A stretch of 64,000 nt of DNA, taken from assembly GCA_964515755.1 (NCBI GenBank), contig CAZEVK010000002.1:10378-74377 (forward strand), given 5' to 3'. The translations under genes and the position numbers were made by a program. Position 1 is the first letter of the stretch. Every line of letters begins with the position of its first letter. The notes beneath the pieces are model-generated. The model did no database searches. It was not told where the DNA came from and was given only the letters and a program-made list of their open reading frames with translations. The DNA comes from an uncultured Rickettsia sp. (GTDB lineage: Bacteria; Pseudomonadota; Alphaproteobacteria; Rickettsiales; JABSSG01). Positions 12,264-26,736 of this stretch are shown here, in pieces.

Positions 12264-13022
12264 TTAGAGTTCGTCCTTGTTAAAATCAATTAAAGGTTCA
12301 TAGCTTTGTGAGTTTAACAACTCTACATCGTGCTCAAAGCTAAATTTATCACCGTAATCCCAACAAAGAGGTTCAAAAGCCTTAATATCTCTAATAGCTA
12401 CAAAAAATATTTTTGTTACTGTTTCTGAAGTTTTCCATGGTACAATGGCTAAATTAGCAGTCATAACTTGTTTGCTAGCATGCTCAGAAGGACAATGATG
12501 AAAAAATCTAGCTGCATTACCGTAATCTTTTGCATCTATATTAGTACCGTCATCATTTATCAAAAGATATGATGTGTCTTCAATTTTAGTATGCGCATCC
12601 TTTCTTTCACCTACATACTCGGCAATTACCATTCCCTTTTTCAAAGCAGCATAAGTTGATATACCAAAACCTATTTTTGAAGAGAGTTTATGTAAAACAA
12701 ATAAATTCATAGCATTTGTTTCTATCCCGTAAGAATCTATTTCTTTTGCTATATTCTTTGGGAAAGGTGTTTTAATATCTTTTTCAAAACGAAATTTTTC
12801 TGCTTCACGTACAGATTTACTAAGATCATCACATAAAAGTTTAAATCCAAATATTTCCTTTATTTTTTCAGGTGTTAATCCTGAAAATTCTGATTTTGGA
12901 GATAATACGTTATCTTTAGAATAAGCTATGTAGCATTCTGCTGAACTGTAATAATATGGTTTTACTGACTTCTCGAAAACACTATTATCTTTTTTATTAG
13001 TTTTATATTGTTTTTTAGCCAT
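12264..13022 (-). CDS. SET-domain protein (putative lysine methyltransferase) with C-terminal KDEL
   Basis: GFGISTYAALKKGMVIAEYVGE, IDAKDYGNAARFFHHCPS (NHxC-type) and FEPLCWDYG (ELxxDY-type) match SET-domain motifs. No signal peptide. It ends ...IDFNKDEL. Confidence 0.7.
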   Translation of the reverse strand: MAKKQYKTNKKDNSVFEKSVKPYYYSSAECYIAYSKDNVLSPKSEFSGLTPEKIKEIFGFKLLCDDLSKSVREAEKFRFEKDIKTPFPKNIAKEIDSYGIETNAMNLFVLHKLSSKIGFGISTYAALKKGMVIAEYVGERKDAHTKIEDTSYLLINDDGTNIDAKDYGNAARFFHHCPSEHASKQVMTANLAIVPWKTSETVTKIFFVAIRDIKAFEPLCWDYGDKFSFEHDVELLNSQSYEPLIDFNKDEL

Positions 13023-13250
13023 ATGCTTAAATCCTCATGTTAGTTAAATTAGTTGTATTATAGTATCTTGTTGATAAATATAAATTTTTTTTAATGTTGT
13101 TGCAACAATAAATTTAAATATTATAAATTTAATGATTATATAAAATAAAAATTTTCTAAATTTATTATTACTTTTACCTAGAAATTATCTAATCTTAGCA
13201 AACTGATAAGAATTATTTGTCAAACTAGCAAGAATATGTGCCAAATATAA

Positions 13251-13278
13251 TTGACAAGTGCTGATAAAATGTATAAAA
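13251..13278 (+). promoter_or_regulatory. Putative promoter of the rplU-rpmA-obg operon
   Basis: TTGACA (13251-13256) followed after 15-16 nt by TGTATAAAA (-10-like TATAAA/ATAAAA). Confidence 0.4.
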
Positions 13279-13319
13279 GTCTAGACTTAAAATAATTTTA
13301 TGTAATAAAGAGACTAACA

Positions 13320-13637
13320 ATGTACGCAGTTATAGCATCAGGTGGAAAACAACATACAGTTGCTCCAAACTTAATTCTAAAAGTTGAAAAGCTTGAGGGC
13401 GAGCTGGGAAGTGAAATTGTATTTAGCAATGTTCTTTTGATAAAAAAAGATAAATTAGATACATTAGTTGGTGAACCTTATGTAAAAAATGCACAGGTTG
13501 TTGGCGAAATTGTTAAACAATCTCGTGATGATAAAGTTATAGTGTTTAAGAAAAAAAGACGACATAACTACCGTCGTAAAAACGGTCATCGTCAATATAG
13601 CACTTATGTTTTAATTAAAGATATTAAAATAGCGTAG
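13320..13637 (+). CDS. rplU: 50S ribosomal protein L21
   Basis: MYAVIASGGKQHTV... N-terminus and the basic C-terminus KKRRHNYRRKNGHRQ are typical of L21. It sits upstream of rpmA. Confidence 0.95.
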   Translation: MYAVIASGGKQHTVAPNLILKVEKLEGELGSEIVFSNVLLIKKDKLDTLVGEPYVKNAQVVGEIVKQSRDDKVIVFKKKRRHNYRRKNGHRQYSTYVLIKDIKIA

Positions 13638-13650
13638 TTTGAGGTAAATA

Positions 13651-13896
13651 ATGGCAACAAAAAAAGCTGGTGGTAGTTCTAGTAATGGTCGTGACTCCGC
13701 AGGTCGTAGACATGGTCTTAAAAAAAATGACGGTCAAACCGTAATACCTGGTAATATTCTAGTTCGCCAGTTAGGTACAAAATACTATGCGGGAGAAAAT
13801 GTTGGCATGGGTAAGGATCATACTCTTTTTGCTCTTACACAAGGTATTGTAAGATTCACAAGATCAGCTGGCAGAGTTTTCGTTAACATTGTTTAG
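13651..13896 (+). CDS. rpmA: 50S ribosomal protein L27
   Basis: [24 protein letters not shown]...[28 protein letters not shown] is canonical L27. Confidence 0.95.
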
Positions 13897-23500: not shown

Positions 23501-23627
23501 ATTAAAATGATTTAGTCTGATTTTGGTTTTTTGTCAATTACTAATTTTTCATTTATTAGTAATAAAAATAACTATGAATGAGCGCTAACACTCATAGGAA
23601 ATTCTAATTTTCTAACACAAACGTACT

Positions 23628-24110
23628 AGTTGAATATTAGTAAGAAGTGCTAACTTTCTTGAGTAATCATAGACTTGCCTTTAAGAGAATTAAAAAATTT
23701 TACTATCTCTATTATGCAGTAATTAGTTGCTTATATTATTCTTCTAAATCTTCAGAAGACTAAATAATTGTATGTTTTCGTTTAAAAATTATATTCCTTT
23801 AATAATGTATTAGTTGAATATTAATAAGAGGTACTAGCTATTTGATCTAAGTATAAAGTTGTTACTAGGAGCACTAAAGAAATTTTACGAGCTTTACTTT
23901 ATCCAAATCAAAATGTAATAGTTAACTTATGCTATTTGGAAAAACTTTTTAAAAATTAAAGCTTCCCCATATCCTTCTTCTAAAAAGAGAATATTAATAT
24001 TATAATCGCATAAAAGTTGAATATTAGCGAGAAATACTAATTCTTGCCGTGTATATAAACTTGCTATTAGTTCTGTATTTAAATAAATGACAGTTATTTA
24101 TTAAAGATAT
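23628..24110. repeat. Three degenerate direct repeat units (about 185-200 bp period) in a 0.9-kb non-coding region
   Basis: The AGTTGAATATTA-nnn-AGA-rr-T-r-CTA core starts at 23628, 23812 and 24015, with further weak similarity downstream (e.g. AAATTTTAC about 70 nt into units 1 and 2). Confidence 0.5.
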
Positions 24111-24448
24111 TTAGAAAACTTCCAACATAATTTCACCTAAAAGGTTAAAATTATTTATAAAATCGTCTAAAAATCGAATAACAATTTTAAGCATTTTTAT
24201 TATTCTCATCTCTAGAGTTTTTATATTTTTTAAGAAAAAATTTAGTTATATTTTCAGATTAATAAATACATTAATTAGATCTGTATATCCCCAGGCATGA
24301 TGCGTAGAAAAAGGATATTTCTAAATTTACACTATCGCTTTTTATTTGAAATTACTGAGTAACATTTGAATCAGTGCTAAATACTAACTGTTTAGATTTC
24401 TAATAGAAGTCAGAGAAATAGCATCATGCAAAAATATTTCTTATTTTA

Positions 24449-25716
24449 TCAATTTGTAGCAGCGTCATCATAATTTTTTAAAACAAAAATCATATATAGC
24501 ATAGATAGCATTGATATAGCACACATTGTCATTAAAAAATATCCAACATAACTAGCGCTACCATATTCCCGTACCAACCACATCGACAAAACCGGAGAAA
24601 GTCCACCAAATAGAGCTGATGAAAAGTTATAGCAACAAGAAACACTTGTAGCTCTGATATTGGAAGGGAATGAAGAAGAAACGTAAGGGCTGAGTATACC
24701 TTGCGTTATACCAACAAATGATCCAATTAAAATACACATTAATAGAGTTATACTCTGACTACTCTGTGCAAAACTATTTATAAATGGAAGAGCTAAAGAA
24801 AAAATACCTAAGCACCCAAAAAAGAGTAAGTAAATTTTTCTCATATAATTTGCTAAAAAGCCAAAAATTAAGGTAGCCAGAGTATATCCCAAAATTGTAT
24901 ATAACATATAAACCCCGGCAGTACCGCGAGTAACCCCAAGGTTATCAATCATCATGGTCTTACCATAAATAAACACTACAAAAAAAGAAGAATGAGATGT
25001 AAGAAAAATTGTAAATAGCCTAAAAATAGTCAGCTTATGGTATTTCAACATTTCTGAAATCGGATTAACACTAAGTTGATTAGAAGAACGAACTTTTTTA
25101 AAGTCTTCGGTCTCTATAAGATTTTTTCTCATATATAAAGCCAGTAAACTTCCTATAACACTGATAATAAACGGTAGTCGCCAAGCATAGCTTAGAATTT
25201 CTTCATTTGTAAAATAATGCTCAATAGCAGAAATTGATAAAGAACTAAGTATTAAACCAAGACCAGCTCCTGTAATTGAAACACTACCAAAAAATCCACG
25301 CATTTTTTGAGGAACCGATTCAAATAAATACACACAAGAGGAACCAAATTCACCACCAAGGGCAATTCCTTGAAAAATTCTGAGAATTACTAAAGCTATA
25401 GGCGCAATTATACCGATTTGGTAATAAGTAGAATCATTGTCGGTACTGACATAAGCATCATCGTCAGGGTCATTGTATCTTTACGACTATATTTATCGCC
25501 AATATAGCCAAAAATCAAAGCACCTATAGGACGTGAAGCAATACCAACTGCAAACGTACCAAAAGCGTAAATTTTAGAAAAAAAAGGATCATGTTGAGGG
25601 AAAAATAACTGGCCAATAATACTGGCAAAATAAGCGTAGAGAGTAAATTCAAACCACTCTAACATGTTACCCATTGATGAAGCTAAAACAGATCGGATTG
25701 TTTGTTTGGTAAACAT
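24449..25716 (-). pseudogene. proP: ProP-type MFS (proline/betaine-like) transporter with one frameshift
   Basis: The N-terminal ORF (MGNMLEWFEFTLYAYFA..., GYIGDKYSRK) and the C-terminal ORF are joined by a third frame reading YQIGIIAPIALVILRIFQGIALGGEFGSSCVYLFESVPQKMRGFFGS. This implies a single indel near 25410-25420. Confidence 0.7.
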
Positions 25717-25848
25717 TTATTTACTCCCTGCTAATTTGGCTATAAACTTTGCTTAAACTATTTTTACAGTATTTTTTTGCTGTTGATAACCCTTTAAAAA
25801 TTATTATTAAATGTTGAGTATTATTTATAGCAAGCTATACATAAATCA

Positions 25849-26736
25849 TTACAGCTCTTCATGCGATACGCCTGCTAATTCAAAACCAATTTCCGGCAAT
25901 GTTTCATGATAATTTCCACATGTGATATTAAAAACTTCATTACCTACAAATGGTAAATCTGATTTTACTTCTTGATCACAAAATGCTTCAATTCTTTCAT
26001 AAATAGAAGGAAATGTACCACCAAGTTGATGACACATATCTTCAATATCTTGTTGAACATTACCCAAACCGGTTATTGCCACATTAACCCCGTCAACGTT
26101 ACAAATTCTTATTTTTGAATCTAATATTTCAATTAATTTTGCTTTCACTGTATCTTTAACACTATTTACATAATCAGCATAATCATTACTCAAAGCTTCA
26201 TGATTTTCTATTGAAATACATTCATTCCAACCATTTTCTTTAATATAATTTAGAAAATATTGATCTATTACATGTTGCTCTCCTAATGATTCAGTCTTAG
26301 CTTGCTTAAAAATTCCTGGTTGCAATTTAACTGAAATTGGAAATTTCAAGTAATTAGATTTATGCCATATTTCCTCATCATCATTTTTAATAGATTCATA
26401 AATTGGAGCAACATTATGATCAGAATTTACTCTAAGCACATCAGGAAGCCGATTATTATTTTCAAACAAACCTACATACTTATAAGCGGATAGATCTTCT
26501 TTTGGTAATAATTTATCATATGTATCTTTATATGCAGGATTATGAGGACTTAAACCGTTTCTACTCCATTTTCCAGCTATATCAAAAATTACAGAAAGTG
26601 AATTATCATTACTAGAGCTTGTGAGTTTATAATTTACAGTGCCACAAGGTTCACAATTAGAATATTTCAGTATTTCTATACCTGTTTTATTAACAAGGAA
26701 ATTAGCTTTTTCTAGACCGCATATTAATTTAAACAT
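25849..26736 (-). CDS. Hypothetical protein ending in HEEL
   Basis: 295-aa ORF with an ATG start, no recognisable domain and no signal peptide. C-terminus ...GFELAGVSHEEL. Confidence 0.5.
   Translation of the reverse strand: MFKLICGLEKANFLVNKTGIEILKYSNCEPCGTVNYKLTSSSNDNSLSVIFDIAGKWSRNGLSPHNPAYKDTYDKLLPKEDLSAYKYVGLFENNNRLPDVLRVNSDHNVAPIYESIKNDDEEIWHKSNYLKFPISVKLQPGIFKQAKTESLGEQHVIDQYFLNYIKENGWNECISIENHEALSNDYADYVNSVKDTVKAKLIEILDSKIRICNVDGVNVAITGLGNVQQDIEDMCHQLGGTFPSIYERIEAFCDQEVKSDLPFVGNEVFNITCGNYHETLPEIGFELAGVSHEEL

Follow-up and report, generated by a model that had tools for sequence, protein, structure and literature searches.

Unrelated leaderless proteins of an uncultured alphaproteobacterial clade carry C-terminal tails resembling eukaryotic ER-retrieval signals

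Results

Five ORFs between positions 12264 and 26736 of the window (the whole 64,000-nucleotide stretch of DNA that was analyzed) end in the tetrapeptides KDEL, NDEL, HDEL, ESEL, and HEEL (Table 1). We put at roughly 0.5 the probability that these acidic proteins, which lack leaders and probably leave through a type I secretion system, carry tails that are genuine mimics of the eukaryotic endoplasmic reticulum (ER) retrieval signal. The observations in hand are an enrichment of such termini, an origin of the signal at the protein level, conservation in orthologues, and a position-specific pattern of variation. The source is an uncultured, AT-rich, host-associated, Rickettsiales/Holosporales-like alphaproteobacterial clade that is symbiont-like and has a reduced genome.

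Table 1. Coordinates of the genes with -EL termini and of one neighboring gene
Feature	Position	Strand	Description	C terminus	Codons of last four residues
Patatin lipoprotein gene	11317-12234		Convergent with SET gene		
SET-domain protein	12264-13022	-	252 aa, no signal peptide	...NKDEL	12267-12278 (KDEL)
Small RTX protein	16518-17045	+	175 aa, pI 4.5	...VNDEL	17031-17042 (NDEL)
GH16-like protein	18184-20712	+	842 aa	...DHDEL	20698-20709 (HDEL)
Ankyrin-repeat protein	20824-22287	-	487 aa	...SESEL	20827-20838 (ESEL)
Orphan	25849-26736	-	295 aa	...SHEEL	25852-25863 (HEEL)

All five ORFs lie where the preliminary description placed them and have the termini that it gave. No other window ORF of at least 80 aa ends in -EL, which bears out its statement that no housekeeping protein in the window has such an end. 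In a six-frame scan of 387 stop-free frames of at least 40 codons, 6 end in EL, namely, the five ORFs and one spurious 51-codon frame that overlies tRNA-Ala. EL is the end of 5 of the 51 window ORFs and [DE]EL of 4, where composition predicts 0.28 and 0.03, respectively. Among 1139 control ORFs from 77 unrelated alphaproteobacterial loci, 3 end in EL and 1 in [DE]EL (Fisher p = 6e-6 and 1.5e-5, respectively, for window versus control), so EL termini in the window far exceed both the compositional and the control rate.

The terminal Leu codons of the five genes are all different (CTC, TTA, CTT, CTA, and CTG) and their 3' flanks are all unlike one another, which indicates that the tails are not a DNA repeat and that the signal lies in the protein. 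Pairwise BLASTP comparisons among the five proteins detected no similarity, in support of the earlier view that the ending is convergent rather than inherited, and a hydrophobic N-terminal leader is absent from all five, as expected from the reported lack of Sec signal peptides. When ~250 ORFs around a few loci of the clade, rather than a whole proteome, were sampled, EL was the commonest terminal dipeptide, occurring in 8 of 151 protein families, with DL in 3 more. Further EL families found in relatives are a class I methyltransferase ending in RDEL and orphans of 664, 160, and 172 aa ending in HSEL, HAEL, and HTEL, respectively. The tails probably arose independently on several unrelated accessory proteins of this clade. 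The motif proteins are acidic (median pI of 4.95 versus 8.25 for other proteins) and are not depleted of lysine.

Pfam recovered the SET, RTX, and ankyrin domains that had been assigned earlier, while GH16 was detected only below threshold and the orphan matched no Pfam family. The SET domain is PF00856 (E = 2.4e-10). The RTX protein matches HemolysinCabind (PF00353; E = 1.4e-17) and has GGxGxD calcium-binding repeats, an architecture that is typical for a type I secretion substrate. The GH16-like protein resembles concanavalin-type glycoside hydrolases and bears an insertion of ~280 aa; it scores 20 bits against the Pfam GH16 cutoff of 22, and 6 of the 7 members of its family are below threshold (best E = 4.1e-5). 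Besides its repeats, the ankyrin protein has, in the N-terminal half, two segments of moderate hydrophobicity. The orphan is lineage specific, has 8 invariant cysteines, and is flanked by two pseudogenes.

The tails of four of the five proteins (SET, RTX, GH16-like, and orphan) are kept in homologues, down to ~24 to 50% identity, also where the residues directly before them cannot be aligned. SET-family tails of 8 to 45 aa cannot be aligned, but their ends, which are kept down to 24 to 39% identity, are KDEL, EDDL, KEDL, HNEL, NHEL, NQEL, PDEL, NLEL, HDEL, PKEL, EDEL, IEDL, DDEL, and GLEL. In a distant genome (GCA_030426905.1), the SET-patatin synteny is preserved and the SET protein ends in EDEL, while none of 72 generic bacterial SET proteins has an EL ending. 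The RTX orthologues end in NDEL (locus L087) and QHEL (locus L099). Full-length homologues of the GH16-like protein (41 to 93% identity) end in RDEL, YDEL, HDEL, NDEL, or HEEL, and the invariant positions of this family are E90-x-D92-x-E94 ("TEIDWE") and the terminal E841 and L842. Orthologues of the orphan (49 to 89% identity) end in HEEL (four, plus the window's own protein) or in NEEL or GEEF (two), although there is an indel directly before the tail; the one at L099 ends in NEEL. In contrast, homologues of the ankyrin protein end in ECGG (syntenic, 60% identity), CILS or LFSF, and DNEL (35% identity). With orthologues ending in ECGG or CILS, its earlier inclusion in the set on the basis of SEL is not supported, as that ending could be chance, and the ankyrin protein is the weakest member, with a tail that is not conserved.

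According to reporter assays in human cells, the efficient residues at position -4 are K, R, H, N, F, W, and Y; all residues but Pro work at -3, E is strongly favored and D weak at -2, and L or F is accepted at -1 (Raykhel 2007). Of the 36 tail tetrapeptides, 35 have L at -1 and one has F; 31 have E at -2 and 5 have D; the residue at -3 varies. The -4 residue belongs to the efficient set in 23 of the 36 (background, 0.28; P = 8e-6) or, counted per family, in 9 of 12 (P = 1e-3), and 4 of the 12 families have His at this position (background, 2.1%; P = 8.5e-5). The variation at each position matches the experimentally determined KDEL-receptor code, which goes beyond what the preliminary description had claimed. 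The excess of these termini and their conservation in orthologues of four of the five proteins also pass two refutation tests that the preliminary description had set. The affinity of the receptor for HDEL is ~10-fold above that for KDEL, which suits low-abundance cargo. Against ER mimicry, some SET-family tails are acidic at -4 (EDEL, DDEL, and EDDL), a class of residue that typical receptors exclude via the D50/E117 gatekeepers, and at -2 several tails carry Asp, a weak residue in the human assays.

Discussion

The pathway that we infer comprises an export route, a lumenal location, and binding to the KDEL receptor. The proteins, acidic and without a Sec leader, would be exported with the C terminus left free and intact, most probably by a type I secretion system of the PrtD/HlyD type; a sister species encodes a PrtD-subfamily ABC transporter (TIGR01842, 706 bits) and an HlyD adaptor. 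Their release would be into the lumen of the bacterium's own compartment, either the ER itself or a vacuole that derives from or fuses with it. Capture of Golgi-bound escapees by the host ERD2/KDEL receptor and their return to the ER in COPI vesicles are established receptor biology, and for these proteins the predicted contacts are the free carboxylate, Leu at -1, Glu at -2, and the -4 residue. More speculatively, the GH16-like glycanase might then act on lumenal glycans and the methyltransferases on lumenal proteins, or the ER might serve as a gateway to the cytosol in the manner of AB toxins.

Since relatives keep the tag, delivery of these proteins into the host ER system is probable. As they all lack a signal peptide, their delivery to the lumen hinges on the location of the bacterium. 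SET and class I methyltransferases, which need SAM, would be unexpected in the ER lumen, as would ankyrin repeats, which are typical of effectors that act in the cytosol or nucleus. The lack of lysine depletion means that the ERAD-escape route of toxins is not indicated.

A PrtD-type system reads an exposed motif at the extreme C terminus, and a purely bacterial function is therefore possible. The main alternative, though a less probable one, is that the tail is an export signal alone. The type I secretion system of the clade (PrtD/HlyD/TolC type), or else its type IV system, would recognize an exposed motif at the extreme C terminus, and this motif would have drifted in this lineage to x-[DE]-E-L and resemble KDEL by coincidence; release would be into whichever compartment holds the bacterium, e.g., the host cytosol. 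The absence of Sec leaders from all five proteins is consistent with this, as are the SET, methyltransferase, and ankyrin domains, which are better suited to the cytosol or nucleus. Like PrtD/AprD/TliD-type substrates, the proteins would have an uncleaved C-terminal signal with acidic and hydrophobic elements and an exposed carboxyl end; they are acidic, as type I substrates are, include one classical RTX protein, and belong to a clade with a bona fide PrtD-subfamily transporter and HlyD adaptor. PrtD/AprD-type systems are reported to need an extreme C-terminal motif with a free carboxyl end, consisting of 4 to 5 residues, acidic and then hydrophobic, and one added residue impairs secretion. 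However, the known motifs are one acidic residue (Asp or Glu) followed by 3 to 5 hydrophobics (AprA has Asp before three hydrophobics; others are EGVLIS and ELLAA), in contrast to the [H/K/R/N]-[D/E/x]-E-L found here, and most carriers here are without RTX repeats. Furthermore, type I signals are usually degenerate, with the terminal motif dispensable in one lipase, and the four-position fit to the KDEL receptor, including the enrichment of His, Lys, Arg, Asn, and Tyr at -4, is left unexplained. A secretion signal of the form x-[DE]-E-L is not known to us from any type I or type IV system. An export function is in any case compatible with a dual-use tail and does not exclude one.

It is improbable that the tail is read instead on the cytosolic side, after delivery to the cytosol, by other host machinery such as a carboxylate-clamp TPR domain, a PDZ-type domain, or a C-degron receptor for acidic-hydrophobic C termini. 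Several eukaryotic domain classes do recognize free acidic C termini with a final hydrophobic residue, and the lack of signal peptides and the several domains of cytosolic or nuclear type (SET, ankyrin, and methyltransferase) would suit such a reader, but the pattern across all four positions is a specific fit to the KDEL receptor, and no substrate for GH16-like glycanases is obvious in the cytosol. To our knowledge, no specific reader combines x-x-E-L with a preference for His, Lys, Arg, Asn, or Tyr at -4. That the tails arose by chance, follow from AT-rich composition, or come from a shared 3' DNA element is very improbable. Composition gives a probability of ~0.2 for at least one further -EL among the ~47 other ORFs, and the ankyrin ESEL, whose orthologues lack the tail, could be accidental. 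For the other four proteins, however, this explanation is effectively refuted: their families conserve the tail across species, the Fisher comparison with the control ORFs shows a strong excess, the six-frame null opposes a composition effect, the codons and 3' flanks differ, and AT-poor SET proteins never carry the tail.

The tails share with the eukaryotic retrieval signals of soluble ER residents (PROSITE ER_TARGET [KRHQSA]-[DENQ]-E-L, the extended code of Raykhel 2007, and the HXEL tails of liver carboxylesterases) the extreme C-terminal tetrapeptide with a free carboxylate, the tolerances (L or F at -1, E far above D at -2, variable -3, and H, K, R, N, or Y at -4), and acidic upstream residues on acidic proteins. 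Unlike the eukaryotic cases, the carriers here are bacterial and have no ER signal peptide, and EDDL, DDEL, NLEL, and PKEL fall outside the usual set. Bacterial precedents are the AB toxins (cholera toxin, KDEL; Escherichia coli LT, RDEL; Pseudomonas exotoxin A, REDLK) and a Streptomyces scabiei RIP with a KDEL tail. These bacterial proteins use a C-terminal mimic to exploit the host's KDEL receptor, as is proposed here, but they are single, Sec-exported proteins with receptor-binding B moieties that are endocytosed from outside. In this clade, the tail occurs on at least 4 and probably at least 10 unrelated leaderless families, with no evident B subunit and no depletion of lysine, and the genome is reduced and symbiont-like.

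Ribosome-studded vacuoles are occupied by Legionella, Brucella, and Jidaibacter, and "Candidatus Grellia incantans" (Midichloriaceae) lives in the rough-ER lumen of Trichoplax fiber cells; in the literature searched, no KDEL-type effector set is reported for any of these. Grellia and Jidaibacter illustrate that Rickettsiales-type bacteria can inhabit ER or ER-like compartments. Proteins exported by a type I system from a Rickettsiales-type bacterium inside an ER compartment would be lumenal.

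Sequence features of the five proteins

The five ORFs that the preliminary description singled out for their eukaryotic ER-retrieval-type termini are all present, exactly at the coordinates and with the C-terminal residues listed in the table. As had been claimed, KDEL, HDEL, and HEEL match the PROSITE ER_TARGET pattern [KRHQSA]-[DENQ]-E-L. The remaining two tails had been called near-variants; this holds for NDEL, which fits an extended code in which N at position -4 (counted from the C terminus) is as effective as K, R, or H, while the ankyrin protein's ESEL is only a loose fit. 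A hydrophobic N-terminal leader is absent from all five proteins and they have no pairwise similarity to one another, both in agreement with the earlier account.

The SET domain (PF00856) was found at 41.2 bits against a cutoff of 22.4, with the whole profile covered, the ankyrin repeats were confirmed by Pfam, and RTX repeats (PF00353; E = 1.4e-17) are present in the RTX protein alone among the five. The orphan has no Pfam match. The match of the GH16-like protein to GH16 (PF00722) is 20 bits, which is below the cutoff of 22, and this match is subthreshold in 6 of 7 members of the family; the residues E90-I-D92-W-E94 are invariant in the family (the GH16 catalytic motif is E-x-D-x-(x)-E). Structure models are too low in confidence to be usable, with a mean pLDDT of 33 for the GH16-like homologue P0012 (AF2) and 42 for the orphan, and profile searches of these two families against PDB sequences gave no match. 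The orphan family has 8 invariant cysteines, a CxxC among them, and cysteines C109, C118, and C765 are invariant in the GH16-like family. Such cysteines would fit either disulfides in an oxidizing compartment or metal binding.

Positions, strands, and C termini of features in the window
Feature	Position	Strand	C terminus
SET and patatin-like lipoprotein gene pair	11317-13022		
SET protein	12264-13022	-	...NKDEL
Small Gly/Ala/Val/Ile-rich ORF	15390-15935	-	
RTX protein	16518-17045	+	...VNDEL
Small Gly/Ala/Val/Ile-rich ORF	17189-17485	-	
GH16-like protein	18184-20712	+	...DHDEL
Inverted repeat	20746-20785		
Ankyrin protein	20824-22287	-	...SESEL
Small Gly/Ala/Val/Ile-rich ORF	23124-23453	-	
MFS (ProP-like) transporter, frameshifted	24449-25716	-	
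Orphan	25849-26736	-	...SHEEL
GTA/phage-type terminase large subunit, pseudogene	26881-28252	-	
dnaN and dnaA	38300-40859	-	
Third ankyrin protein	46408-47166		...EVS
814-aa ABC protein	57034-59478	-	
260-aa coiled-coil ORF	59558-60340	-	
Second ankyrin protein	62532-63752	-	...NALSEF

The -EL termini exceed background

It had been stated that no housekeeping protein in the window ends in -EL, and indeed the only window ORFs of at least 80 aa with this ending are the five. In a six-frame null of 387 stop-free frames of at least 40 codons, an EL end is found in these five and in one spurious frame over a tRNA-Ala gene. We used as a control 1139 ORFs of at least 100 aa from 77 unrelated alphaproteobacterial loci around obg, of which 3 end in EL, 1 ends in [DE]EL, and none matches the PROSITE pattern. 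The corresponding counts among the 51 window ORFs are 5, 4, and 3 (Fisher test of window versus control, p = 6e-6 for EL and 1.5e-5 for [DE]EL). The window is therefore well above the composition and control rates of -EL termini, and the background rate that was to speak against the interpretation was not seen. The -EL enrichment is more than chance, and a composition artefact is contradicted by both the six-frame null and the control loci. The terminal Leu codons of the five genes (CTC, TTA, CTT, CTA, and CTG) are all different and the five 3' flanks are unrelated. The signal is therefore at the protein level with no DNA repeat, and we rejected a DNA-level cause such as a shared 3' repeat or terminator.

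The tail is conserved in four of the families

In our reading of the homologues, conservation is the strongest new evidence. The proposed check on tail conservation gave a positive result for the SET, RTX, GH16-like, and orphan families, in which neighboring residues vary, and a negative one for the ankyrin family. Alignments indicate that the tail is under selection in those four families. Six homologues of the orphan, at 49-89% identity, end in HEEL (four) or in NEEL and GEEF (two), and these tails are kept despite an indel immediately upstream. Full-length GH16-like homologues (41-93% identity) end in RDEL, YDEL, HDEL, NDEL, or HEEL; the residues upstream of the tail cannot be aligned, and columns E841 and L842 are invariant. 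RTX family tails are NDEL and QHEL.

The SET family was searched exhaustively among 50%-identity representatives. Nearly all full-length close homologues (24-73% identity) finish in -EL or -DL (KDEL, EDDL, NHEL, NQEL, PDEL, NLEL, HDEL, PKEL, EDEL, IEDL, DDEL, and GLEL), preceded by linkers of 8-45 residues with unrelated sequences. One homologue at 39% identity, which ends in EDEL, adjoins a patatin gene just as in the window, and the PDH subunits of its genome share only 56-64% identity with their counterparts in the window's sister species; the SET tail has therefore persisted across deep divergence. By comparison, 72 generic SET proteins of bacteria, taken from other metagenomic contigs with 36-73% GC, have basic tails, and none ends in EL. 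The SET and patatin-like lipoprotein genes are convergent both in the window and at 10001-11917 of sampled locus L102, from a distant genome (GCA_030426905.1; patatin 48% identical). In another sampled locus, L006 (Obg 76%), the SET gene is absent between patatin and rplU.

For the ankyrin protein, the syntenic orthologue ends in ECGG and other homologues end in CILS or LFSF; DNEL is found only in a 35%-identical one. Since there are ankyrin orthologues without the tail, it is doubtful that ESEL is a retrieval-type tail.

Retrieval-type tails in further families

Similar tails are found on additional, unrelated protein families in the loci of relatives. An integrase-bearing island of one relative encodes both a 664-aa orphan ending in HSEL and a class-I methyltransferase ending in RDEL, a 172-aa orphan (HTEL) adjoins a GH16-like gene in a relative's locus, a histidine phosphatase in relatives' loci ends in ETEL, and a 160-aa orphan of the sister species ends in HAEL. 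Looser cases in the sister species are YFDL, FLEL (an alpha/beta hydrolase), and EKDL. When 246 ORFs from clade loci were clustered into 151 families, EL was the commonest terminal dipeptide (8 of the 151 families, plus 3 in DL), and every other dipeptide was found in at most 4; this sample covers ~250 ORFs near a few loci rather than a whole proteome. The sampled housekeeping neighborhoods of the window's organism and its sister species (loci L088 and L096) have no such tails.

The island of the relative (locus L091, 1-21746; JGI sample 3300010885) has an integrase and a transposase, and carries a short GH16-like paralogue (HEEL) together with the 664-aa orphan and the methyltransferase. This trio adjoins a PAS histidine kinase/response regulator pair, and the methyltransferase-kinase-regulator order is seen again beside P0012 on a different contig. 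In the window, a second ankyrin protein, outside 12264-26736, may be a sixth candidate, because its x-x-E-F ending would fit the extended KDEL-receptor code, in which F at -1 is as good as L. A third ankyrin protein has a hydrophobic C-terminal segment.

The tails follow the KDEL-receptor code

We tallied 36 observed tetrapeptides, and also counted each family once (n = 12). The final residue (-1) is L in 35 of 36 and F in 1, and the one before it (-2) is E 31 times and D 5 times. Residues at -3 vary: 15 are D, 6 are E, and the others are L, N, H, K, S, Q, A, F, or T. Position -4 is K, R, H, N, F, W, or Y in 23 of 36 against a background of 0.28 (binomial P = 8e-6, for cases that are not independent) and in 9 of 12 families (P = 1e-3). 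His at -4 is found in 4 of 12 families versus a background of 2.1% (P = 8.5e-5). The H-x-E-L tails (HAEL, HSEL, HTEL, HNEL, and HEEL) recall the HXEL retrieval signals of liver carboxylesterases.

When human KDEL receptors were assayed using 152 reporter variants, F, W, and Y performed as well at -4 as K, R, H, and N, position -3 tolerated all residues except Pro, -2 strongly preferred E with D being weak, and -1 accepted both L and F (Raykhel et al. 2007, PMC2140024). The pattern in the tally is essentially this human KDEL-receptor specificity code. HDEL has a ~10-fold higher affinity for the receptor than KDEL and is favored where the cargo is of low abundance (Gerondopoulos et al. 2021, PMC8248988), and such tight binding would suit scarce bacterial proteins. 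An acidic residue at -4 is excluded by most receptors via D50/E117 (PMC8248988); some SET tails (EDEL, DDEL, and EDDL) have one. Both these SET tails and those with Asp at -2, which are weak in human cells, argue against simple lumenal residence.

Proposed export route and interpretation of the tails

The five proteins have pI values of 4.5-6.3, and the median pI of tail-bearing proteins is 4.95 versus 8.25 for the remaining sampled proteins. The sister species has an ABC transporter of the PrtD subfamily (TIGR01842; 706 bits versus a cutoff of 510) with an HlyD-family adaptor encoded next to it (278 bits versus a cutoff of 209), on a contig that has a protein identical to one in MAG GCA_945877755.1. 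No PrtD-type transporter or HlyD adaptor was found inside the 64-kb window. In the 814-aa protein of the window, residues ~600-780 form a clear ABC ATPase domain, whereas its N-terminal region is long and weakly hydrophobic, with few hydrophobic segments. It has faint similarity to the type I secretion transporters LssB/HlyB, and it adjoins a 260-aa Lys/Glu-rich coiled-coil ORF with faint HlyD similarity. The two may represent a highly divergent exporter or have a different identity; the ABC protein is too divergent to call, and we rely on neither as part of a type I system.

KDEL-receptor hijacking is textbook knowledge for a few extracellular AB toxins. In sequence, the tails here resemble both the K/HDEL signals of eukaryotes and the KDEL, RDEL, and REDLK ends of cholera toxin, LT, and exotoxin A (PMC6471375), and a recent paper mentions one Streptomyces RIP that has KDEL (PMC13592729). 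We rejected membership in the AB-toxin class, since the five proteins are without signal peptide, B moiety, or lysine depletion: no toxin B moiety was matched by Pfam or NCBIfam in the five proteins and their neighbors, and lysine content is 5.1-12.3% compared with a window median of 7.8%, so toxin-style ERAD escape is not indicated. Like PrtD/AprD-type substrates, the five proteins are acidic and have no signal peptide, with a putative uncleaved signal at the C terminus. Four of the five lack RTX repeats, and some known type I secretion substrates are likewise devoid of them.

The interpretation offered in the preliminary description is partly supported: it gains from tails that are conserved, enriched, and code matching, and loses the ankyrin tail. 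Based on these sequence comparisons, we put at roughly 0.5 the probability that the tails are true mimics of ER-retrieval signals, probably carried by substrates of type I secretion. Leaderless acidic proteins would leave the bacterium in one step via type I secretion with the C terminus uncleaved and free, which would meet the KDEL receptor's need. 'Ca. Grellia incantans' sits in the ER lumen of Trichoplax, and Legionella, Brucella, and Jidaibacter occupy ribosome-studded ER-like vacuoles (PMC6784892). For a bacterium in either setting, type I substrates would be lumenal, and a retrieval tail would then keep them from being carried off by the secretory flow. This sequence of export to the ER lumen and retention by the tail is inferred. 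A more specific version is tentative and somewhat less probable: that the clade as a whole, associated with protists or animals, lives in, or in a compartment draining into, the host ER lumen, where leaderless type-I-secreted H/K/R/N-x-E-L enzymes are retained by the host KDEL receptor. That repertoire would comprise the GH16-like glycanase, the SET and class-I methyltransferases, the RTX protein, and several orphans, and a single free C terminus would be used by the export machinery of the bacterium and by the receptor of the host. The N-terminal signal peptide through which lumenal proteins classically enter is absent from all five proteins, so that they could be lumenal only by leaderless export from a suitably placed bacterium. 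Two SAM-dependent methyltransferases and an ankyrin protein would be odd ER-lumen cargo.

The same facts, namely leaderless and acidic proteins, one RTX member, and a PrtD-type transporter, also fit a purely bacterial explanation, in which the tail is a lineage-specific secretion-signal motif alone. PrtD/AprD/TliD systems are reported to recognize an exposed motif of 4-5 residues at the extreme C terminus, and one added residue to impair secretion (PMC2642768, which cites Ghigo and Wandersman 1994). However, the canonical motif consists of one acidic residue and then at least three hydrophobic residues, and it is dispensable in one lipase (PMC2642768), whereas the tails here are [H/K/R/N]-[D/E]-E-L, in which the last residue alone is hydrophobic. 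We regard this explanation, by way of a lineage-specific variant of the motif, as the main alternative and as less probable than mimicry; other readers of the tail, or chance, have only a small probability. If the tail turned out to be a motif for type I secretion, such a signal would be exceptionally sharp and predictive, and would help to identify substrates in Rickettsiales-like genomes, whose type I signals are poorly defined.

Returning to ER-retrieval mimicry, recurrent, selectively maintained tails on numerous proteins without mutual relationship have not been described for an intracellular or symbiotic lineage, and we found no report of multifamily conserved KDEL-type tails in such bacteria in the searchable literature. 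The finding is statistically solid, conserved, and mechanistically specific, and would indicate an unusual niche for an uncultured clade. The more specific version above would, if true, be the first "ER-lumen effector repertoire". If the tails do act as retrieval signals, they would provide a sequence-only predictor of an ER-lumen or ER-fused-vacuole niche for unculturable bacteria, a ready list of candidate lumenal effectors, some of them enzymes without known lumenal precedent, and natural variants with which to probe the specificity of protist ERD2, the KDEL receptor.

Source lineage and gene neighborhood

The window is AT rich (GC ~31%) and clearly bacterial, with genes that include rplU-rpmA-obg, dnaA-dnaN, mfd, an autotransporter, and MFS transporters. 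Identical copies of the SET protein are found on contigs of JGI environmental metagenomes. The nearest genome by Obg (90% identity) is the MAG of isolate LH-02apr19-40, mislabelled 'Rickettsia typhi', followed by MAG 'Rickettsiales bacterium SW_16' (76%) and MAG ZH-03apr19-290 (72%), and all other Obg matches, Holosporales and Rickettsiales MAGs included, are at most 63% identical. Based on the MAG labels and these identities, the lineage is called here an uncultured Rickettsiales/Holosporales-like alphaproteobacterium. Its gene content looks host associated because of the ankyrin, SET, and patatin proteins, GTA-like genes, and pseudogenes, together with TIR and LepB_N-like proteins in relatives. 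Since dnaN and dnaA are adjacent, the replication origin may be near (intergenic region ~40860-41060); cumulative GC skew has no clear turning point within the window.

Two decayed genes flank the intact HEEL orphan. The terminase pseudogene has an in-frame TAG and a frameshift near its N terminus, and an intact 470-aa gene is found at the same place in sampled loci L087 and L099. A frameshift at ~25429 divides the MFS transporter gene into two ORFs (102 and 294 aa), and the gene is whole (426 aa) in L087. Three small Gly/Ala/Val/Ile-rich ORFs without Pfam matches lie among the -EL genes, with no detectable similarity among themselves or with the ankyrin protein's N-terminal half; the second and third have counterparts in L087 and L099, one of which is duplicated in L099. 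The convergent GH16-like and ankyrin genes are separated by 111 bp, and this gap contains an inverted repeat, ATGTCCGTGGCA ... TGTCACGGACAT, which looks like a shared bidirectional terminator.
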